A DNA stretch of 64,000 nt, from NCBI GenBank assembly GCA_009776725.1, contig WRNE01000006.1:1109-65108 (forward strand), given 5' to 3'. This document shows, piece after piece, positions 53,391 to 64,000 of the stretch. Each line of letters starts with the position of its first letter. The stretch's first letter is position 1. The stretch comes from Coriobacteriia bacterium. Lineage in GTDB: Bacteria > Actinomycetota > Coriobacteriia > Coriobacteriales > UBA8131. A program made the position numbers and the translations under genes. The notes under the pieces are model-generated. The model saw nothing but the letters and a program-made list of their open reading frames with translations, made no database searches and was not told where the DNA came from.

Positions 53391-54224
53391 TTAATCAATG
53401 GAGTATAAACGTCGAGACATTGATTTAGTCAAATACGAAGAGAGCGCGTTGATGGCCACGACGACCAGCAGAAGAATCACTGCTGTCGCATAGGCTTGGC
53501 CGGTATAGAGCCCTTCGCTGGACAAGGCATACATGTGAATAGAAAGTGTCCTAGCCGAAGACATCGGGCTGGACGGTATCTGTGCGACGGTTCCAGCCGT
53601 GTAGATCAATGCCGCGGTCTCTCCGACGATCCGGCCGATAGCCAAAATCACGCCAGACAGGATACCCGGGGCGGCCGAGGGCAAAACGATACGGAACACT
53701 GTCCGCAGCTTGCCTGCACCCAAGCCGAACGATCCCTCACGGTAGCTGTCAGGCACTGCCATCAAGCTTTCTTCGGTGGTCCGCATGATCAGAGGCAAGA
53801 CCATAATGGCAAGGGTGAGGCTGCCAGCCAGCAGCGAATAGCCCCAACCGAGCCAGATGACGAAGAAAAGCGATCCGAACAACCCATAGATTATCGAGGG
53901 AATCCCCGACAAGGTCTCAGCCGTCATGCGTACCAGGCTGACGAGCTTTGACCCACGAGTCCCGTATTCTACGAGGTAGATAGCTGAAAACACCCCGAAG
54001 GGCACAGCGATCAGCAAAGCAAGGCCGACAGTCATCACCGTAGTTACCAAAGCTGGCATCAAGGAGACGTTGTTGGTGTTGTAGGCAAACTCAAAAAGCG
54101 AGGGCTTGATGAATGGGATTCCGCGGACCAGGATGTAACAAATGATCAATATCAGCATGGTAAACGTCAAGAATGCGGAGATCCAGGTGATATATTTAAG
54201 GAGAAGGCTGTAGTATTTCCTCAT
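53391..54224 (-). CDS. pstA: Phosphate ABC transporter permease PstA
   Basis: LSGIPSIIYGLFG and GRIVGETAAL. Confidence 0.96.
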   Translation of the reverse strand: MRKYYSLLLKYITWISAFLTFTMLILIICYILVRGIPFIKPSLFEFAYNTNNVSLMPALVTTVMTVGLALLIAVPFGVFSAIYLVEYGTRGSKLVSLVRMTAETLSGIPSIIYGLFGSLFFVIWLGWGYSLLAGSLTLAIMVLPLIMRTTEESLMAVPDSYREGSFGLGAGKLRTVFRIVLPSAAPGILSGVILAIGRIVGETAALIYTAGTVAQIPSSPMSSARTLSIHMYALSSEGLYTGQAYATAVILLLVVVAINALSSYLTKSMSRRLYSID

Positions 54225-55120
54225 GCCTCAGACCTCCTCATCAGTAATGAGAACAGCATGTTTATCAGCAAGACTAGGACAAACAGTACTAGACCGGTAG
54301 CAATCAATGCCTCTCGATGCAGGCCTTCGGCGTAGCCCATCTCAATCACAACGTTCGCTGTGAGCGTCCTTGTCCCTTTGAGGAACTCGTTAGGCATCCG
54401 TAGCAAGGCTTGGTTCCCAGCGACCATCTTGACGGCCATGGTCTCGCCGATGGCTCGGCCGACCCCTAAGACGACTGCTGCCATGATCCCAGACTTTGCA
54501 GCAGGGACCAAGACGCTAAACACTGCCCTTTCATGGCTGGCTCCAAGGGCAAGCGCTCCCTCGTAGAGCTCGTCGGGCACAGCCCTGATCGATGATTCGG
54601 AGATACCGATAACCGTTGGCAGGATCATAATGCCTAGTAACATGGCAGCCGACAGGATGCTTGAACCGTTACCACCGAAATTCTGCCTGACAAAGGGAAC
54701 CAGGACCACTATCCCGAAAAACCCATAGATCACCGAAGGGATGCCAGCCAACAGGTTCACAGCTGGTTTTAAGACCTTATATATCCGCGGTGGGCAGATT
54801 TTAGCCATAAAGACTGCCGTCAGGATGCCGATGGGGACCCCGAAGATGACTGCCCCGACCGTTATGTAGATACTGGCTATAATCATCGGGAAGATGCCAA
54901 AGGCGGGGGGATTATTAGTCGGGGCCCAGTCCATCCCGAACAAGAAGTCGACGACTCCGATCTTTTGGACAATGGCGGGCAGTCCATAAACGAAGAGGAA
55001 AAGACAAATCAGCCCAACAGCAAGGATTGCTGTTAGGGCTGACAAGGCAAATATCACACGCATAGATTGTTCTTTGAAGCGTACGAAACCACCAAGTGTC
55101 TTCACTTGATTTCGCTCCAA
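54221..55120 (-). CDS. pstC: Phosphate ABC transporter permease PstC
   Basis: LAGIPSVIYG and GRAIGETMAV; start uncertain. Confidence 0.96.
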   Translation of the reverse strand: MERNQVKTLGGFVRFKEQSMRVIFALSALTAILAVGLICLFLFVYGLPAIVQKIGVVDFLFGMDWAPTNNPPAFGIFPMIIASIYITVGAVIFGVPIGILTAVFMAKICPPRIYKVLKPAVNLLAGIPSVIYGFFGIVVLVPFVRQNFGGNGSSILSAAMLLGIMILPTVIGISESSIRAVPDELYEGALALGASHERAVFSVLVPAAKSGIMAAVVLGVGRAIGETMAVKMVAGNQALLRMPNEFLKGTRTLTANVVIEMGYAEGLHREALIATGLVLFVLVLLINMLFSLLMRRSEA

Positions 55121-56007
55121 GTAGTAATCTCGCCTGTGTAGATCCTCATGACATCCTCGGCACTTAAGTCGGTGACAGGGTTGTTGTTGTTGACTATCAC
55201 GGCGATGCCGTCAACAGCAATATCGATACCAGTCAACTCTGCTGCCTCGGTGTCTTTTAGCTCGCGGCTGGACATCCCGATATCATATGTACCGTTCATT
55301 GCACCGGTCATACCAGAAGACGAGTCGCTCATTTGGACCTCGATGGTAGCGTTCGTGTTCAGCTTCTTATACTCTTGGACTAAGTACTCCATGAGCGGGG
55401 TAACGGATGACGACCCACCGACAACGATCGATCCGGAAGGCTTGGTGCCGTTGTACTCAGGAGCGTTCTCGTCAGCGGCTAGGTAGCCTCTTTCCTCGAC
55501 GATGGCCTGTCCTTCTTTGGACATGATGAAGTCGATGAAGTCTTTAGCTAGGCCAGTCGGGTCAGGCTTGGTAGCAATGATGAAAGGCCTTTGAATCGCA
55601 TAGGTGCCGTTTTTGACGTTCGCGGTCGTAGCAGCGACGCCGTCGATGCTGACTGCCTTGACTGTGTTGTTCAGCGAGCCCAGTGATATATAACCAATCG
55701 CATACGGGTCGTTAGCAATATTGGTCATCATCACATCGGTCTTGTCAGCAATGACTGCCTCTTTGGTGGTGTTGTCGTTCTTGTTGGCATCCTGAACCTC
55801 GAAAAGCTCGATAAAAGCAGAGCGGGTCCCACTGCCGTCCTCGCGGGAGACTACCGTGATCGGCTTCGTGTTGTCAAATCCATGTGTGGACTCGTTCGAC
55901 TCGGTACTCTCGTTCTCTTCGTCCCCATTGCTGCTGGCCGGGGTACAAGCAGAGACCGCGGACGTGCCAAGCATCAGAACCAGTAAAATCGAAACGAATT
56001 TTTGCAT
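55102..56007 (-). CDS. pstS: Phosphate-binding lipoprotein PstS
   Basis: Lipobox VSAC; REDGSGTR, GSSSV and DGIAVIVN motifs. Confidence 0.94.
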   Translation of the reverse strand: MQKFVSILLVLMLGTSAVSACTPASSNGDEENESTESNESTHGFDNTKPITVVSREDGSGTRSAFIELFEVQDANKNDNTTKEAVIADKTDVMMTNIANDPYAIGYISLGSLNNTVKAVSIDGVAATTANVKNGTYAIQRPFIIATKPDPTGLAKDFIDFIMSKEGQAIVEERGYLAADENAPEYNGTKPSGSIVVGGSSSVTPLMEYLVQEYKKLNTNATIEVQMSDSSSGMTGAMNGTYDIGMSSRELKDTEAAELTGIDIAVDGIAVIVNNNNPVTDLSAEDVMRIYTGEITTWSEIK

Positions 56008-56273: not shown

Positions 56274-56672
56274 TTAAAAATCAACGTACGAGGTGTCTCC
56301 GCCAAAGCTGTCGAAGCGGGCAGTTGCATCTTCGAAGCACAAAACCAGCATGTTGTCGTCGTCGACAGAATACATTCCCGCTAGATTCGGGTAGGCATCG
56401 AGCATTGACTGCTTTGCTTCGCGGCGTTCGTCAGCGATCAGCTTGGCGGAAATGCGGATCCAGGTCCCAGTCTCTGCGTCAAAGGCACAGACTTCGACAT
56501 TGGGGTTGGCAAAAATCTGCTTGGCCACGTCTTTGGACCGCCCGGTTTGAATGTACAGCTTGTTCTCAAAGACATTGATCGTGCCCATCGGCCTTACCCG
56601 GGCCTTGTCTGCATCAACGGTGGCCAAATAATAAGTGCCGACTTTCTTTAGTAGCTCATAAACTTCGTCCAT
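56274..56672 (-). CDS. Pyridoxamine 5'-phosphate oxidase family (split-barrel flavin-binding) protein
   Basis: YYLATVD..ARVRP...QI.ANPNVEVC...WIRI; ATG at 56672 after GGAGG. Confidence 0.88.
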   Translation of the reverse strand: MDEVYELLKKVGTYYLATVDADKARVRPMGTINVFENKLYIQTGRSKDVAKQIFANPNVEVCAFDAETGTWIRISAKLIADERREAKQSMLDAYPNLAGMYSVDDDNMLVLCFEDATARFDSFGGDTSYVDF

Positions 56673-57096
56673 GGTCCCTCCTTTGGGGTCTATGCTGGCA
56701 AACTGTGCTGCGTTTTGGCACAAGGGGCCTGGCAAGGTACTTGGCTCGCATCGCAACAAGCTGCCGTTTTATAACGTACATGGGTTTTTGCAGTAGCATT
56801 CGCCCATGTAAACGATATACATACTATACGATATGCGCTGTATCATTGGCGGACAGGCGGTATTTGATACAACGTCGGCTTTATCTTGGAGTAAAATCTA
56901 TTGCGACTGCGAATTTGCTGGCTCGCAGACGAGATGCCGGCAGTGTCCAAGGCCTGAGTGAAAACCCACGTTTGCAAACTGTATACAAAGCAAAGGCAAA
57001 GCGCATCCCATCAAGTTAATATCAAAACAATAAACATTTAAAATGCTAAACAACGAAAGAGCAGAGTAAGGGGTTTAAAAAAGATGGTATTTCATT

Positions 57097-58887
57097 ATGA
57101 GTGCTGATCATAAAAAAGAAGCAGACCAGCAAAAACCTAGTGGGGGCCGTAGGTTTAAAGACAGCGCTCCGATGATGTCAAGCAGTGTAGAGGTTTCCGA
57201 GCATGACCGCGGGACAGCATATGACAACGGGACAGCCTATGACAACGGGACAGCCTATGACAACGGGGTCTTGACAGCCCAGGACTCTCCAGCGGAAGCG
57301 CTTTCGATGGGGGAGCAAGTATTAAACGAGCAAGCCTTAGTCAGCCAAGAGATTCCTACAGACATAAGATCGATCAAAGCAGCCATCAGCGGGGTCCTGC
57401 CCACAGACGGTACAGAAGATGCTGCCGAAGCAAAAGACAAGGCTCCGCGAAAAACCGAGGATCTGTACCTGCTAGGCAAATCGCTGAAAAGGCCTGTCCA
57501 ATCCATTGCTGCCTTGTTGGTAGGCGTGGTTTTAGTCGTGTATCTGTATGGTGTGTTCTACTTTAACGACCATTTTGGGTTCAATACCACTATCGACAAG
57601 CGCAATATGACCTTCTTGTCAGTCGACGAGGCCGAGTCGAGGCTCTTCTTCAACGCAGAGTGCTTCACCATGACCATCACCGGCCGCGAAGACGTCCAAT
57701 ATACCCTTTACTCGGACGATGTCGGCCTGTACTACATTCCAGACGACCAGATCGAGACTATCCTCAAATCCCAAAACCCATGGCTTTGGCCGCTTAGGTT
57801 GATACCGCAAAACGAGTACCACACTGACCCATCGCTCAGATTTGAAGCCGACTTGCTGGAAAAATACCTTTACGACAGCGGCTTGCTAGACCCTGAGAAT
57901 ATGCGCTACCCAGTTGACGCTCGGCCAATATTTAGAAATGGGTCTTGGGTCATCGAAGACGAGGACTTAGGCACTGCTCTAGACGACGAGCTGGTCTTTC
58001 GGGTTATATCTGACCACTTGATCAACGCCATGAACCAGTGTGACTTGAATTCAACAGGCTGTTATCTGAACCCTACCGTCTATGCAGGCGACCAGGAACT
58101 GCTGACCCGTGTCGAGGACTTTAACACATATGCCCAGTTCCAAATCGTCTATGAGTTCGGCGATGAAACCGAGACGCTTGACGCCAATATTGCCATCGAC
58201 TGGTTCATCGAAAACGACGACGGCTCAAAAATGCTTGACTATGTGGCACTGGACGCTTGGCTGGATGACTTCTGCAAACGTCATAACACCTTAGGGATCG
58301 AGCGTGTTTTTCAAGCCCATCGAGGGGACATGATCACGGTCAGCGGCGGTACATACGGTTGGCAAATCGACCGTATGGCAGAGCGGAACGCAATCATCGC
58401 CGCAATCACCAACAAGTCCAGCGAGACCCGAGAGCCGTACTATGCCCAGCGTGGGGCAGAGCATCCCAGTGAAGCAAGCATGCCGGACTGGGGCGGCACC
58501 TATATCGAAATCGACCAAGGCATACAGAAGCTCTTTTACTTTGTTAACGGTGAGTTGGTGCTAGAGACCGATATCGTCACTGGCTTGCCGACCCCGATGT
58601 GGACGACTCCCTGTGGGGTCTATCGGGTCTTGACCCGGGTAAGCCCGGCGCGCTTGCAAGGGCCTATCCAAGAAGACGGCAACCCGATGTGGGACTCGGT
58701 TGTGCAGTTCTGGCTAGGCGTTACATATGGCGGAGTAGGCATTCATGACGCTTATTGGCAGCCTTGGTTCGGCGGCAACCGGTATCAGTACGGTGGCTCG
58801 CACGGTTGCATCAACCTGCCTTATAGCAGCGCCAGGGACTTATACGGGATGGTTGAGGTCGGCACACCAGTAATCATCCATTGGTAG
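57097..58887 (+). CDS. L,D-transpeptidase (YkuD domain) with PG-binding-type stalk and N-terminal TM
   Basis: TYIEID, DIVTG...TP.GVY, GIHDA.W and GSHGCINL (catalytic His/Cys); cytoplasmic disordered N-terminus. Confidence 0.93.
   Translation: MSADHKKEADQQKPSGGRRFKDSAPMMSSSVEVSEHDRGTAYDNGTAYDNGTAYDNGVLTAQDSPAEALSMGEQVLNEQALVSQEIPTDIRSIKAAISGVLPTDGTEDAAEAKDKAPRKTEDLYLLGKSLKRPVQSIAALLVGVVLVVYLYGVFYFNDHFGFNTTIDKRNMTFLSVDEAESRLFFNAECFTMTITGREDVQYTLYSDDVGLYYIPDDQIETILKSQNPWLWPLRLIPQNEYHTDPSLRFEADLLEKYLYDSGLLDPENMRYPVDARPIFRNGSWVIEDEDLGTALDDELVFRVISDHLINAMNQCDLNSTGCYLNPTVYAGDQELLTRVEDFNTYAQFQIVYEFGDETETLDANIAIDWFIENDDGSKMLDYVALDAWLDDFCKRHNTLGIERVFQAHRGDMITVSGGTYGWQIDRMAERNAIIAAITNKSSETREPYYAQRGAEHPSEASMPDWGGTYIEIDQGIQKLFYFVNGELVLETDIVTGLPTPMWTTPCGVYRVLTRVSPARLQGPIQEDGNPMWDSVVQFWLGVTYGGVGIHDAYWQPWFGGNRYQYGGSHGCINLPYSSARDLYGMVEVGTPVIIHW
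57211..57267 (+). repeat. In-frame 18-bp tandem repeat, three copies (GTAYDN)
   Basis: GGGACAGC(A/C)TATGACAAC at 57211, 57229 and 57247. Confidence 0.95.
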
Positions 58888-59088
58888 GCTTAAGTGGTTG
58901 TCTAAGCTGCATATCTGCACTCACATGCCAACTAGGGCAAGTTTGGCCTTGTGCGAGCCCGTTCGTAAGTGGTTTTAGGTTATTGAATTCTCATATCGCG
59001 AGATAGAAGGGGTGCGGTATAATTTCGCTAGTATAGTGTTAACAGGTGCTCAAAAAACGCAGTTAGCCCTCACGAAACGGGATTGAAT

Positions 59089-59805
59089 ATGGATGAAAGC
59101 ACGAATAATTCACTTAACGAAGAAAACGAGTTAGATACGCCAGTGTCTGACGGCCGAGTGGACGATTCATCCCAAACCGTACTCGATATTGACGACTCAG
59201 GGCAAGAAGACCCAAAAAACACTGGGGATATCGATATGTCTTTAATCGAGGAGGAGGATACATCCAAGGCTGCCCTCTCTTCAACGCTTGTCCCAAACTC
59301 GTCAGCTACCTCAACGAACGGCTTTAACGCAGAAGCTGGCAACAGCGAGACTGGCGAAAAGGGAATATCGATCATCGCCCGTGAGGCCACAGTGCTCGGA
59401 GACATCATAACCGAAGGCCATATTGACATTATCGGTAAGGTCCGAGGAAATATTGCAGCTCAGGGAGATGTTGCGATACATGGTCAGGTGAGAGGGAATA
59501 TCGATGGCGAAAAAATCGGGCTCTATAACAGCCGTGTCAAAGGCAACTTAAAAGCCGGACAGGGCGTTATAGTCAACGATACTTCGATTATCGATGGTGA
59601 CGTAACAACGAAGAATATAATTTTCGACGGAAAAGTCCGAGGTAATATTGCTGCAGATAATGTGGTAGTTTTTCGTAGTCACTCCTATTGTCTGGGCGAT
59701 GTTACTGCAGCTTCGATTGCTGTCGAGCCTGGTGCTGTGATCAATGGTACAGTTCGCACGATAATCGAAGGAGACCTTGAAGCACCCTTCGAAGAAATTA
59801 TCTGA
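59089..59805 (+). CDS. Bactofilin (polymer-forming cytoskeletal protein) with extended beta-helix and acidic N-terminal tail
   Basis: SIIA..ATVLGDI.TEG.I.I.GKV.GNI, repeated V.GN(I/L) windings, and a C-terminal GDV.AASIAVEPGA.ING. Confidence 0.9.
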   Translation: MDESTNNSLNEENELDTPVSDGRVDDSSQTVLDIDDSGQEDPKNTGDIDMSLIEEEDTSKAALSSTLVPNSSATSTNGFNAEAGNSETGEKGISIIAREATVLGDIITEGHIDIIGKVRGNIAAQGDVAIHGQVRGNIDGEKIGLYNSRVKGNLKAGQGVIVNDTSIIDGDVTTKNIIFDGKVRGNIAADNVVVFRSHSYCLGDVTAASIAVEPGAVINGTVRTIIEGDLEAPFEEII

Positions 59806-59830
59806 CTAAACTCTTAGGTAGGTGCCGATT

Positions 59831-62800
59831 GTGGAGGAGAGACAACTACCGAACGATTCTGACCCCAATGCCACAGACAACGAGCTGATTGATCAGGATG
59901 CGTTCAGTATAGGTGAAATAGATAAGCTTGACGAGCAGATCCATAGCAGCATCTCGAGCGTGTTGGAGGGGGTCTCCCCCCTGATCACGATTGACAGCTT
60001 TCCTACACAGACTGCTACGAGGCCTGCTGCCATACAGTCAGGCGCCCCCGGGCCAGAAGTGGGCCTAACAGGCCTAAACGATACCTCGCAAGCAAGTTTT
60101 CAAGCTTATGTGGAGAAGGACGAGCCGCTCTTGCCAATCGAGACAGAAGCGCTTAACGTACCTGGCCGGCTTGACGAGAACACCAGCCCCCTAGGCCAAG
60201 CCCCTGGCACTGTCAGCCTGACAAACGCGCCTATGCCGTCTGTCGATGTGCCTGACGTAGGCGTAAGCGACAGCGCACTACAGGCTGTAAGGCAAGTGCC
60301 CGCAGCCCAAGCGCCTGCAATGCAGGTGCCTGCCCCCGCGCCCGCAGCCCAAGCGTCTGCCCCCGCGCCATCTGCCCAAGCTGGCGGCTTGCAAGATGCC
60401 CCGACAGCACCAAACCAAACAACGCAATTCGGGCTTCAGTTTGACCCTGAAATAGGCGGAATGAGGTTGGTGTCGGTGAAACCGCCTGACACAACAGCCC
60501 TGGTAAACGAGCAGGCTGCTACGAGCGTAGCTTATCAGCAACCATATATAGAGCCGCAGGCCTCGGTTGCAGCGAGCACCTTGTCCAGCCGCTTGACTCA
60601 GATCTCTGACATGGTTGCAGCTGAGAAGCTGGCTGAAGAGAGGGCAGCTGCCGAAGCGGCAAGACGTGAGGCCGAACGCTTAGAAGCCGAACGCATCGCT
60701 GCTGAACGGGCAGCCGAAGAAGCTGCCAGGCAGGAAGCAATCAGAATAGAAGCCGAGCGAATTGTTGCCGAACGTGCAGCAGTGATGGAGGCAGCCCGTC
60801 TGGAAGCAGCCCGTCTGGAGGCTGAGCAGGCAGCAGCAGAAGCCGCTAGGCTGGAGGCTGCAAGGCTTGAGGAAGAACGAATCGCTGCCGAACGTGCAGC
60901 AGTGATGGAGGCTGCCCGCCTAGAAGCCGAGCGTATCGAGGCTGAGCAAGCGGCAGCAGTAGCCGCCTTACGGGAAGCAGAGCGTCTCGAAGCCGACCGC
61001 ATTGCTGCTGAACGAGCAGCTGCCGAGCGCGCCGCCAGGCTGGAAGCCGAGCGCATAGCCACCGAGCGCGCCGCAGCCGAAGAGCTTATCAAGCTTGAGT
61101 CAGACCGGATTGATGCTGAAAAAACCGCTGCCGAGGCAGCCAGGATGGAAGCCGAGCGCATCGCTGCTGAAAGAGATGCAGCAGAAGCAGCAGCCCAGCT
61201 TGAGGCTGAGCGGATGTCTGCTGCCCGCCTTACTGCCGAGACCGAAGCCAAGAGGCTGGTTGAAGAGCTGCAAGCAGCTGAGAATGCACGCTTAGAGGCC
61301 GAAAGAAGTGCTGCACAAGAAACTGAGAGGCTGGAAGCCGCTAGGCTTGAAGCCTTGCGCATAGCAAGTGAAAGAGCCCGGGCAGAAGAAGAGGCGAAAC
61401 AAGAGTTCGAGCGTGTAGCCAATGAAAGGGCTGCCATTGAGGCTGCCCGAGTAGAAGCAGAGCAGATAGAAGCCGAGAGGATAGCAGCCGAGAGGATAGC
61501 TGCTGAAAAAGCAGCGAGCATCGAGGCTGAGCTGATAGCTGCTGAGCAGGCTGCTGCCGAAGTACAAAGAATTGGGGCTGAACGCCAAGAAACCGAGCGC
61601 TTAGCAACGATTGAGGCAGCAAGGCTTACAGCCGAGCGTATCCAAGCAGAGAAAATCGTAGCTGAAGAAGCAGCCAAGCTTGCTGAGACAAAGCAAGAAG
61701 CAGAACGTCTGGCAGCAGAGAGGGCGGCAGCTGAAGAAGCCCGCTTAGCAGAAGCCGAGACACGAGCTACAGAAGAAGCAGCCAGGCTGGAGGCGATTCG
61801 ACTAGAAGCGGAGCAACTTGCCGCTGAAGAAGCTGCCAAGCTAGAGGAGATTCGAACAAAGGCAGAAGCCCTTGCTTTCGAGGAAGCAGAAAAAATCGAG
61901 ACCGCCCGCATAGCTGCCGAGGCTAAAGCCGCTGAAGAAGCAGCCAGGCTGGAAGCAGTCCGGCTGGAGGCTGAAAGGCTTGCCCAGGATGAAGCGAACA
62001 GGATTGAAAATGCAAGGCTTGCTGCCGAGGCGAAAGCCGCTGAAGAAGTAGCAAAGCTAGCAATAGAGAAAGACGCTGCTGAAAAAGCTGCAGCCGAAAG
62101 GGCCAGGCTTGAGTCAGAGAGGCTCGAAGCAGAGAGAATAGCTGAAGAAGAAGCCGTCTTGCTTGAAGCCGCAAAGCTTGAAGCAGACCGTATTGCCCAA
62201 GAACGGGCAGCTGCTGAAGAAGCAGCTAGGCTCAATGCTGTCGAGACTGCTAATCTAGAAGCAGAGAAAGAGGCTGCGGAGAAGGCCACGGCTGAAAGGG
62301 CCAGGCTTGAGGCAATTAGGCTTGAAGCAGAGCGTTTGGCTGAAGAGGAAAATGCCAAACTTGAAGAAATAAAGCTGGAGACGGAAAGAATCAATGCCGA
62401 GCGTTCAGCAGCTACGGAAGCAGCCAGGCTGGCAGCCGAACAAGCTGCTTATGAGGAAGCTGCAAGAATAGCTGCTGTAGAGGAAGCTGCCAGATTGGCG
62501 GCTGAACAAGCAGAAGCAGAGATGTCTGCAAGAATCGAGGCTGAACGAATAGCTGCCGAAGAAGCCTCCAGGCTCGAAACCCTAAGGGTAGAAGCTGAAA
62601 AGCGAGCTGCCGAAGAAGCCTCCAGGCTAGAGGCAGTCAGGGCCGAGGCGGAACGCACCGCCGCCGAAGAGGCTTCCAGGCTAGAGGCTGTCAGGGCCGA
62701 AGCAGAGCGCACTGCTGCAGAAGAGGCTTCCAGGCTAGAGGCTGTCAGGGCCGAGGCAGAGCGCACTGCTGCAGAAGAGGCGGCTAGGCTTGAAACAGTG

Positions 62801-64000
62801 CGGACAGAGGCAGAGCAAAGGGCAGCCGAAGAGGCTGCGCGTATTGAGGCCGTCCGGTTAGAGACCGAGGCCAGAGCTGCTGAAGAAATAGCCAGGCTAG
62901 AAACCCTTAGAACAGAAGCAGAGCAAAAAGCCGCCGAAGAGGCAGCCCGAATCGAAGCAGTCAGGATTGAAGCTGAAAGGGTAGCATTCGAGGAAGCAGC
63001 CAGGCTTGAGGCTGTAAGAATCGAGGCCGAAGAACGGGCGGCAGAAGAAAACGCTAGATTGCTTGCAGAAAAAGAGGCAGCCCAAAAAGCTGCACAAGAA
63101 AGAAGCCGGCTGGAAGCAGAGCGTTTAGAAGCTGAGCGGATAGCCGAGGAAGAAGCAATAAAACTCATTGCTGCTAAAACCGAAGCAGACCGTATTGCCT
63201 TGGAAAGGGCAGTTGCTGAAGAAACGGCACGTGTTGCTGCTGAGGAAAGAGCAGCTCAAGAAGCTAGCCGAATCGAGGCTGACCGGTTAGCGGCTGAAAA
63301 AGCAAACAATGAGGCCTTAAGGCTTGAGGCCATAAGGCTGGAGGCTGAAAAAGCCGCTGAGCTGGAGGCTAACAGGATCGCCGAGCAGAAAGCCGCTGCC
63401 GAGGCCGAGGCAAGAAGGCTGGAGGCTGAAAAAGCCGCTGCCGAAGCCGAGGTTAGGAAGCTTGAAGAAGAAAGAGCGCTTGCCCAAGCTGCTGAGACTT
63501 CAAGGATCGCTGCCGAGCTCGCTGCTGTCCGAGCGGCTGCCGAAGAGGCGGCACGTCTTGAGGCAGAACGCATAGAGACTGAGAGGATCGCCGCTGAAGA
63601 AGCAGCAAAGCTGGAAGCAGCACGGGAAGAAGCAGAAAGGATTGCTGCTGCCCGTATAGAAGCCGAGGAGGCTGCAAAGGCAGAGGCAAGCAAGAGGATA
63701 ACTGCTGAGGCTGCTAGAATCGAAGCAGAGAGAATAGCTGCAGAGCAGGCAGCCGAGGCTGAAACCAAAAGAGCAGACGAAGAAAAAGCTGCGAACGAGG
63801 CAGCAGAAACTGTCCGGATAGCAGCTGAATTGGCAGCTGCCAGAGCTGCTGCCCAAGAAGCCGAACGACTGGAAGCCGAAAGGTCGTTGGCTCCGGATAC
63901 GCTTAGAGTAGAAGCCGAGCGCCAGGCTGCCGAAGCCGCTGCTCTTGAAGCTGAGCGCCAGGCCGCCGAAGCCGCTGCTCTCGAAGCCGAACGCCAAGCA
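59831..64000 (+). CDS. Giant Ala/Glu/Arg-rich helical (coiled-coil/SAH-like) protein, at least 1390 aa, 3'-truncated
   Basis: GTG at 59831, 25 bp after the bactofilin stop. Segments translated by hand (start, 62552-63037 and end) are all in the same frame. The track reports no closed ORF in this frame, which is consistent with the ORF running off the window. Confidence 0.88.
62552..63037 (+). repeat. Nine tandem 54-bp (18-aa) coding repeats, consensus AAEEA(S/A)RLEAVRxEAExx
   Basis: Hand translation gives three identical [18 protein letters not shown] units flanked by six variant units. Confidence 0.92.
63911..64000 (+). repeat. 36-bp (12-aa [12 protein letters not shown]) coding repeat running off the window
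   Basis: Two and a half near-identical copies are visible. Confidence 0.85.

Follow-up and report, generated by a model that had tools for sequence, protein, structure and literature searches.

A bactofilin gene followed by a gene for a very long tail-anchored protein: a putative membrane tether module in a Coriobacteriia bacterium

Bactofilins are widespread scaffolds for cell shape and for positioning. Here we describe two adjacent genes of a Coriobacteriia bacterium, one for a bactofilin and one for a tail-anchored protein of 1,700 amino acids (aa), which we call its partner. The window (the whole stretch of 64,000 nucleotides that was analysed) is G000:C6:1109-65108, and coordinates given without a contig refer to it. 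Two described bactofilin systems are closest. In Caulobacter crescentus, residues 1-13 of PbpC bind BacA polymers, and over-produced PbpC(1-132), which consists of the tail and the transmembrane (TM) segment, restores the localisation of BacA without its targeting peptide, as stated in the available part of PMC12448750. According to the same part of that paper, most bactofilins have an N-terminal membrane-targeting peptide of the MFSKKKK type. Such a peptide is common but not obligatory. In Helicobacter pylori, the bactofilin CcmA belongs to a Gram-negative helical-shape complex with Csd5 and Csd7 (available part of PMC9507126).

A preliminary description of the locus had read three co-directional genes as a scaffold that positions 3-3 cross-linking of the wall, and had likened the giant protein to Scy, FilP and crescentin. 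These are soluble, long and helical proteins with heptad-based or 51-residue coiled-coil periodicity, and they are implicated in shape and polarity. Long charged helices also occur in single alpha-helix (ER/K) domains and in the Ala/Lys/Glu-rich domain II of TolA, where they serve as stiff spacers with i+3/i+4 pairs. TolA itself is a membrane-anchored spacer protein.

As had been described, three open reading frames (ORFs) run in one direction, at 57097-58887, 59083-59805 and 59822 to past the window end. We propose, with a probability of roughly 0.6, that the second and third form a two-gene tether module, in which a bactofilin without a targeting peptide is served by a downstream tail-anchored partner whose spacer is expanded in this organism. 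The partner gene, directly 3' of the bactofilin gene, would probably be co-translated with it. The partner consists of a conserved, predicted helical N-terminal peptide of ~35 residues, a hypervariable low-complexity spacer and one TM helix at the C-terminus, which is flanked by basic residues on its cytoplasmic side and leaves almost nothing of the protein outside the cell. The peptide would bind the bactofilin polymer, and the TM helix would fix that polymer to the cytoplasmic membrane, thus acting as an anchor in trans. In this genus the spacer has grown by imperfect repeats into a continuous acidic Ala/Glu/Arg helix of ~1,250 residues. The features of the two genes are as follows.

59083..59805, + strand: bactofilin, 240 aa, or 238 aa from the probable start ATG 59089
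59083-59367, + strand: acidic disordered N-terminal region of the bactofilin, aa 1-95, net charge -19
59368-59766, + strand: bactofilin domain, ~aa 96-228, by Pfam
59767-59802, + strand: conserved C-terminal tail GDLEAPFEEII of the bactofilin, aa 229-240, by alignment
59822..64000, + strand, onward to window-equivalent 64924: giant tail-anchored partner, 1,700 aa
59879..59977, + strand: N-terminal motif conserved among the partners, aa ~20-52, by alignments; proposed bactofilin-binding peptide
59984..60424, + strand: Pro/Ala/Gln-rich disordered linker, aa 55-201, by composition; AlphaFold2 (AF2) predicted local distance difference test (pLDDT) <50 for aa 54-199
60425..60478, + strand: second short conserved motif of 18 residues, aa 202-219, a predicted beta-hairpin just before the helix
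60548..64000, + strand, to window-equivalent 64321: Ala/Glu/Arg helix, aa 243-~1500, by composition
beyond the window, + strand: Ser/Thr/acidic linker, aa 1501-1649, which ends in an Asp/Tyr/Glu run and Lys-Lys
beyond the window, + strand: C-terminal TM helix, ~aa 1650-1670, then ~30 aa outside

Pfam PF04519 matched the bactofilin in two overlapping stretches with 71.6 bits (cut-off 27.9), and with 56.3 bits when the genome was searched. The genome holds no other bactofilin locus. NCBIfam had no match for it. A profile of its subfamily matched the solved bactofilins 6RIA (E = 4.8e-8) and 2N3D (E = 1.8e-6). The bactofilin and its acidic stretch (~95 aa) had both been recognised in the preliminary description, but the acidic stretch had been placed as a tail, and it is N-terminal. 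The protein starts with MDESTNN and shows neither a MFSKKKK-like peptide nor a TM segment. From this start and the strong acidity we conclude that it has no membrane-targeting peptide of the MFSKKKK type, unlike BacA, which has a targeting peptide of its own (available part of PMC12448750).

The C-terminal tail of the bactofilin is conserved. Residues E233, A234, P235 and F236 are invariant in 13/13 sequences, the last 12 residues are near-invariant across the Coriobacteriia-type and Clostridia-type proteins, and all homologues end there, including the long ones with N-terminal extensions. We regard the tail as a candidate peptide for docking or regulation. The 11 longer bactofilins listed (P0027-P0037, 426-1,008 aa) have N-terminal extensions and end at GDLEAPF[DE]E, and none of these 11 is fused to a partner. 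Since the extensions are hypervariable, both members of the pair bear hypervariable disordered arms. Such N-terminal extensions, which many Coriobacteriia-type bactofilins have, are Ala/Pro/Glu-rich, and these proteins share MDEN.DLTEG as a conserved start and [QD][SD]LW as a recurring motif.

The partner ORF extends past the window end and lies at G000:C6:60930-66032 on the contig (1,700 aa). Its first in-frame start is GTG 59822. GTG 59831, which would give 1,697 aa, is the likely start because AGGTAGG precedes it, and the gap to the bactofilin is then 25 nucleotides (nt), the distance reported earlier. The Atlas record of the protein begins at the GTG 59831 residue too. Also as reported, the protein has no signal peptide, a Pro/Ala/Gln-rich head and a long Ala/Glu/Arg helix. 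Its sole hydrophobic window is aa 1644-1673 of 1,700 (TM calls in this work rest on hydropathy windows). As its N-terminus lacks a hydrophobic segment and basic residues lie ahead of the TM helix, it is predicted to be N-in/C-out and tail-anchored. The C-terminus, for which the preliminary description had raised an exported or unrelated domain as an alternative, contains no such domain and ends in a bare membrane anchor, one TM helix plus ~30 aa. The net charge of the whole protein is -185.

The partner family is rare, with no Pfam or NCBIfam model. Pfam searches with the full giant protein and three orthologues (E up to 1) returned only sub-threshold TM-like noise, NCBIfam had no family for the giant protein or for other partners, and the ESM Atlas gave no usable match for the giant protein. 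When the profile of the partner motif was run against 1.84 billion cluster representatives, 26 matched, and 3/6 of those inspected were unrelated repeat proteins. In alignments of 11 and 42 sequences, the Coriobacteriia-type and Clostridia-type partner motifs share one register. AF2 predicted a helix for aa 30-51 of the giant protein, with a pLDDT of ~62-67 from a shallow alignment. The second motif is common to the giant protein, L067 and L070 (3/4 aligned sequences). AF2 placed strands there at 202-208 and 213-219 (pLDDT ~81), and this beta-hairpin prediction is tentative because the alignment comprises 4 sequences only. For an alignment of 29 Clostridia-type partners, the AF2 model has N-terminal helices (7-13, 19-38 and 41-49) ahead of a disordered middle; a TM helix follows at 180-208 (pLDDT >90), and the model contains no globular domain. 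In the alignment these partners have more conserved motifs besides the N-terminal one.

The genome sample comprised 61 genomes, this one (G000) and 60 relatives. A strong match to the bactofilin was found in 8/33 genomes of the same family, mostly incomplete metagenome-assembled genomes (MAGs), plus one weak match at 23% identity, and an orthologue was found in 0/27 genomes from other families of the order. In all 8 genomes with the orthologue, a partner with the shared motif starts directly 3' of the bactofilin. Complete partner orthologues in these genomes are 599, 737 and 871 aa long, beside the 1,700 aa here, and each has one terminal TM helix. The linkers of the 599-871 aa partners are Pro/Glu repeats or Ala/Val/Thr-rich and contain no Ala/Glu/Arg helix; short acidic linkers also occur. 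Because orthologues substitute low-complexity linkers, the helix is better regarded as a variable spacer than as a conserved polymerising domain. In G001 and G002, which belong to the same genus, the C-terminal end of the partner sits at contig edges. The helical expansion is at least genus-wide, since the G001 end has Ala/Glu repeats before it and the DUF1015 gene after it.

A scan of species genomes gave 12 loci, 8 titled as Coriobacteriia, Coriobacteriales, Eggerthellales or Actinomycetes MAGs and 4 as Clostridia or Eubacteriales. In the latter four the bactofilin domain is 58-61% identical to the present one, and the pair is present in 4/4, with partners of 129, 133, 204 and 603 aa. A scan of metagenomes gave 65 loci, 54 of which include the bactofilin stop; one, L117, leaves only 76 nt after it. 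The partner follows the bactofilin in 53/53 assessable metagenome loci, 50 by profile and three (L067, L074 and L113) by eye. The L067 partner is at least 1,013 aa long and of the same type as the giant protein, and the L070 partner has 730 aa. In 32/33 complete partner frames the TM helix ends 45 residues or fewer from the C-terminus. The partners have basic residues before the TM helix. Partner length spans 129 to 1,700 aa with a hypervariable linker. That the bactofilin and the giant protein form a functional pair, as had been suspected, is borne out by a gene order kept in every assessable related locus.

The Clostridia-type module has a bactofilin of the same subfamily (59-61% domain identity) and a homologous partner motif in register, and its partner too is tail-anchored. 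It differs in that partners are mostly ~170-240 aa, an S26 homologue lies upstream, the two genes overlap by 4 nt (in the Coriobacteriia type 15-42 nt lie between them), and the bactofilin has a conserved N-terminal peptide of its own, VINLKDLL, found in 4/4 genome loci. One Clostridia bacterium (L032:7435-9243) encodes a 603-aa partner with a near-perfect 13-residue repeat linker that closely resembles the Ala/Glu/Arg helix. This linker could be a convergent expansion or derive from a shared seed.

A class-wide search found other Coriobacteriia bactofilins in 91/251 genomes, 49 of them over the cut-off. When 29 of these loci were examined, two matched the subfamily profile, weakly, and in both cases no co-directional ORF of 60 aa or more begins in the interval from 60 nt before to 150 nt after the bactofilin stop. 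A FastTree analysis of 60 bactofilin domains, with metagenome loci labelled by motif type and with duplicates and domains <140 aa dropped, recovered the Coriobacteriia-type and Clostridia-type proteins as sister clades, which a long branch separates from the outgroups; no direction of transfer can be inferred from this tree. Because identity between Coriobacteriia and Clostridia reaches 58-61%, yet these proteins are distant from other Coriobacteriia bactofilins, the sequences suggest that the two-gene module was transferred between phyla. A literature search, with subscription-only papers outside its coverage, returned no paper describing such a bactofilin-partner pair, in agreement with the earlier statement that no system of this kind had been described.

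The composition of residues 265-1500 of the giant protein is 34% Ala, 25% Glu, 12.5% Arg, 7% Leu and 5% Ile; among these 1,236 residues Pro occurs once and Gly twice. Charged residues make up 42%, the net charge is -128 (~-10 per 100 residues), and Leu, Ile, Val, Met and Phe together account for ~16%. The region contains imperfect 13-, 18- and 36-40-residue repeats, Leu/Ile recur with 13- and 18-residue periods, and the hydrophobic periodicity includes harmonics of 18 residues. Tandem Repeats Finder identified imperfect DNA repeats of 54, 108, 120 and 126 nt, whose copies are 68-90% alike. No heptad (3.5) signal was found, the power being 0.01 in the whole region and 0.92 in 56-residue windows, against shuffle means of 1.06 and 1.04. 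The hendecad (3.667) was likewise absent, with 0.45 in the whole region and 0.97 in windows against shuffle means of ~1.0. E(i)-R(i+3) pairs were observed 138 times (50.2 +/- 5.8 expected) and R(i)-E(i+4) pairs 140 times (50.4 +/- 5.4 expected). Given this excess of E/R pairs and the lack of a heptad or hendecad, the region looks like a charged single helix with intrahelical salt bridges, that is, a single-alpha-helix-type stiff spacer rather than a coiled-coil filament, and its state would be monomeric. Fully extended, ~1,250 residues of helix measure ~185 nm (0.15 nm per residue).

Compared with Scy, FilP and crescentin, the giant protein is also a very long helical protein, but it lacks 3.5/3.67 periodicity, it is membrane-anchored and its helix is unconserved in orthologues. 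With the ER/K and TolA helices it shares dense i+3 and i+4 acid-base pairs, with the ER/K type also the absence of a hydrophobic seam, and like TolA it is anchored in the membrane. Unlike those helices, its own is far longer (~1,250 residues), cytoplasmic and net acidic, with Arg in place of Lys and 34% Ala.

The resemblance to BacA and PbpC of Caulobacter crescentus concerns the plan of the partner. Both PbpC, as presented in the available part of PMC12448750, and the partner are bitopic, with a conserved N-terminal peptide, an unstructured Pro-rich linker and basic residues by the TM helix. In PbpC, however, a TM helix after the tail leads to a large periplasmic synthase (same part of the source), whereas the partner is tail-anchored, with at most ~30 residues outside and no enzyme. 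Unlike PbpC, the partner is encoded directly 3' of the bactofilin, and the two peptides have no detectable similarity. Because the bactofilin has no targeting peptide and the partner follows the logic of the PbpC tail, the role that we propose for the partner is that of a dedicated membrane tether, which by analogy would do for this bactofilin what the PbpC tail can do for BacA. The pair is also like CcmA with Csd5 and Csd7 in that a bactofilin is combined with non-enzymatic transmembrane partners. Those are other proteins with another topology, as far as the available part of PMC9507126 describes them, and the present partner matches no family.

Several points weigh against the tether. Simple tethering near the membrane is difficult to square with a spacer that may reach ~185 nm. 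Published single alpha helices have a higher charged fraction than the 42% of this helix, and an Ala-rich, moderately charged helix may self-associate through Ala/Leu/Ile faces. The weak 3.6-residue signal (3.34, with a shuffle 95th percentile of 3.39) does not speak for or against an amphipathic stripe. The length given for the repeat region comes from a single short-read-type assembly, and all genomes concerned are uncultured MAGs. In the Clostridia type, VINLKDLL could bind the membrane, and the tether would then perhaps be needless.

The first of the three ORFs, upstream of the pair, encodes an L,D-transpeptidase. Its features, the gap behind it and the S26 homologues found upstream of bactofilins at other loci are listed here.

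57097..58887, + strand: L,D-transpeptidase, 596 aa, by ORF and Pfam
57097-57495, + strand: cytoplasmic tail of the transpeptidase, aa 1-~133, ~130 aa, by hydrophobicity
57496-57567, + strand: TM segment of the transpeptidase, ~aa 134-157, within the hydrophobic window aa 130-158
58234-58425, + strand: PG_binding_4, aa 380-443, by Pfam
58498-58878, + strand: YkuD domain, aa 468-594, Pfam PF03734, 74.4 bits against a cut-off of 23.4
58888..59088, + strand: intergenic gap from transpeptidase to bactofilin, ~195-200 nt, which holds TATAAT
L033:5935-6588, L032:5904-6596, L035:5477-6070 and L019:13909-15534: S26 homologues

The YkuD match and the hydrophobic window agree with the earlier account of a membrane-anchored L,D-transpeptidase with a cytoplasmic tail of ~130 aa. 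Its translation contains His-x17-Ser-His-Gly-Cys-Ile-Asn, reading IHDAYWQPWFGGNRYQYGGSHGCIN, which we take to be the YkuD catalytic (active-site) motif, and by its sequence the protein looks like an ordinary, catalytically intact wall enzyme. The genome has 2 YkuD genes. Within the tail, aa 43-58 (57223-57270) contain AYDNGT three times in tandem, a repeat absent from the tails of relatives. A motif shared between this tail and the head of the giant protein had been suspected by eye and was dropped, the best BLASTP E value being 7. The TATAAT on which the preliminary description based a separate promoter for the bactofilin pair is present at 59018-59023, but a scan of the gap (58888-59082) found no two-hexamer promoter, as no -35 hexamer matched, and no terminator.

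By tblastn, a transpeptidase gene lies 5' of the bactofilin only here and in G001 (loci L021 and L024), L067, L068, L069 and L071. The adjacent transpeptidases of these relatives have 52-83% identity, and in the FastTree analysis the loci with an adjacent transpeptidase carry the bactofilins nearest to this one. In the other genera of the family (5/5: G007, G009, G011, G012 and G016), the transpeptidase orthologue, with 37-47% identity from ~residue 127 on, and the bactofilin are on separate contigs, both of them large in G007. There the genes 5' of the bactofilin are recR/dnaX or ribF. The tail is conserved neither in length (~45 aa in L067, ~25 aa in G001) nor in sequence, since matches to relatives start at query residues 108-152. 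The transpeptidase is thus probably a neighbour and not a conserved part of the pair; to judge from gene order, it became the upstream neighbour in this sub-clade only.

The corresponding position is often filled otherwise in sister lineages. In most Clostridia-type loci, the gene next to the bactofilin on its 5' side encodes an S26 signal-peptidase homologue that has a cytoplasmic N-terminal extension; at ~30 such metagenome loci it is co-directional with the bactofilin. It is divergent from the bactofilin at the Coriobacteriia-type loci L019/L030/L081 (same contig), L077 and L079. Of four module-linked copies, L035 and G004 retain the catalytic Lys, and the other two have replaced it, L033 by Gly and L032 by Gln. 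As the S26 homologue so often occupies this slot, a general pattern of a bitopic client upstream is conceivable.

This slot bears on a three-part system, in which a bactofilin held by the giant protein would recruit the transpeptidase through its cytoplasmic tail and so position 3-3 cross-linking. The transpeptidase is bitopic and has its N-terminal tail of ~130 aa inside the cell, it lies directly 5' of the bactofilin here and at the related loci named above, and no terminator was found between the two. The S26 homologue, also bitopic with a cytoplasmic extension, hints at a 'client' position, and PbpC (PMC12448750) and LmdC (PMC10945521) provide precedents, as far as the available parts of these papers go. 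However, the orthologous transpeptidase is on another contig in 5/5 other genera, with recR/dnaX or ribF in its place, its tail is unconserved and has no BLASTP similarity to the partner head (best E = 7), and a gap of ~195 nt with the -10-like TATAAT divides it from the bactofilin. We therefore consider the three-part system unlikely. Linkage in related genomes, by which the preliminary description had proposed to judge its three-gene module, holds for the pair and fails for the transpeptidase. The same description had taken the transpeptidase link to be the weaker one, which agrees with adjacency in closest relatives only, against all assessable loci for the pair. A coiled-coil cytoskeletal filament of the Scy, FilP or crescentin type, co-polymerising with the bactofilin, is a very unlikely identity for the giant protein. 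More than 1,200 residues nearly without Pro or Gly and rich in helix formers would suit it, and of the 13- and 18-residue periods of Leu/Ile the latter equals five turns, with which a straight hydrophobic stripe is possible in principle. Against it, the power at 3.5 and 3.67 does not exceed the shuffle mean, whether in the whole region or in 56-residue windows, Leu/Ile/Val/Met/Phe make up only ~16% at a net charge of ~-10 per 100 residues, the protein is anchored in the membrane, and orthologues swap the helix for Pro/Glu repeats or short acidic linkers, which leaves no conserved assembly domain. The filament suggested earlier is accordingly not upheld.

The partner might also be a regulator or effector of the bactofilin (a nucleator, a capper or a length ruler), or the bactofilin might cluster the partner so that the acidic spacers form a sub-membrane brush. 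Hypervariable acidic low-complexity extensions on both proteins, with bactofilins of up to 1,008 aa, would fit such a role, as would the invariant extreme C-terminal tail of the bactofilin in both lineages, the second conserved motif with its predicted beta-hairpin before the helix and the further conserved motifs of Clostridia-type partners. Yet nothing points to a specific regulatory activity, and the plan of conserved peptide, variable linker and TM helix is most simply that of an anchor, so that we hold this explanation to be quite improbable. Finally, the extreme length could in part be an assembly artefact of the repeats, the true gene being much shorter or variable in size. The imperfect repeats of 54, 108, 120 and 126 nt, and the contigs that break inside the partner gene in G001, G002 and several metagenome loci, are what such an artefact would lead one to expect. 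But one frame stays open for 5.1 kb between the conserved N-terminus and the conserved TM end, repeat copies merely 68-90% alike can be assembled from short reads, and a stretch of like kind, at least 1,013 aa long, occurs at the independent locus L067. An artefact is very unlikely on these grounds.

On the 3' side of the giant gene, just past the window end, genes for a DUF1015 protein (231.9 bits) and a WXG100 protein (54 bits) occupy G000:C6:66148-67866, and the DUF1015 gene has the same position in G001 and G002. On the 5' side, the phosphate transporter operon pstS-pstC-pstA (53391-56007, minus strand) and a PNPOx-like gene (56274-56759) are divergent from the transpeptidase and upstream of it. 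The pst-transpeptidase neighbourhood is retained in G001, of the same genus. The genome also has MreB (430 bits), DivIVA and one S26 peptidase ~44 kb distant.

Overall, the observation made in the preliminary description is confirmed and its interpretation is partly supported. The result corrects the weakly supported idea of the locus as a machine for positioning 3-3 cross-links. A bolder reading, which we offer as a speculation with the odds well against it, is that the spacer is an evolvable molecular ruler, ranging from ~50 disordered residues to a single helix of ~1,250 residues and setting the distance between scaffold and membrane or the length of the scaffold. If so, the scaffold of this genus would lie deep in the cytoplasm or along much of the cell, and it might also place a bitopic neighbour enzyme, the transpeptidase here and the S26 homologue in sister lineages. 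The spacer would then be, to our knowledge, the longest predicted bacterial single alpha-helix, and the ruler a new mode of coupling a cytoskeletal polymer to the envelope. Whatever the role of its spacer, the 1,700-aa partner has one of the longest uninterrupted charged helices predicted in bacterial proteins, in our experience, and would be useful for the study of single-helix spacers. A dedicated partner that is co-encoded and tail-anchored, with a head that is short and conserved and a spacer free to vary, would be a simple means for bactofilins without a targeting peptide to arrive at the membrane.

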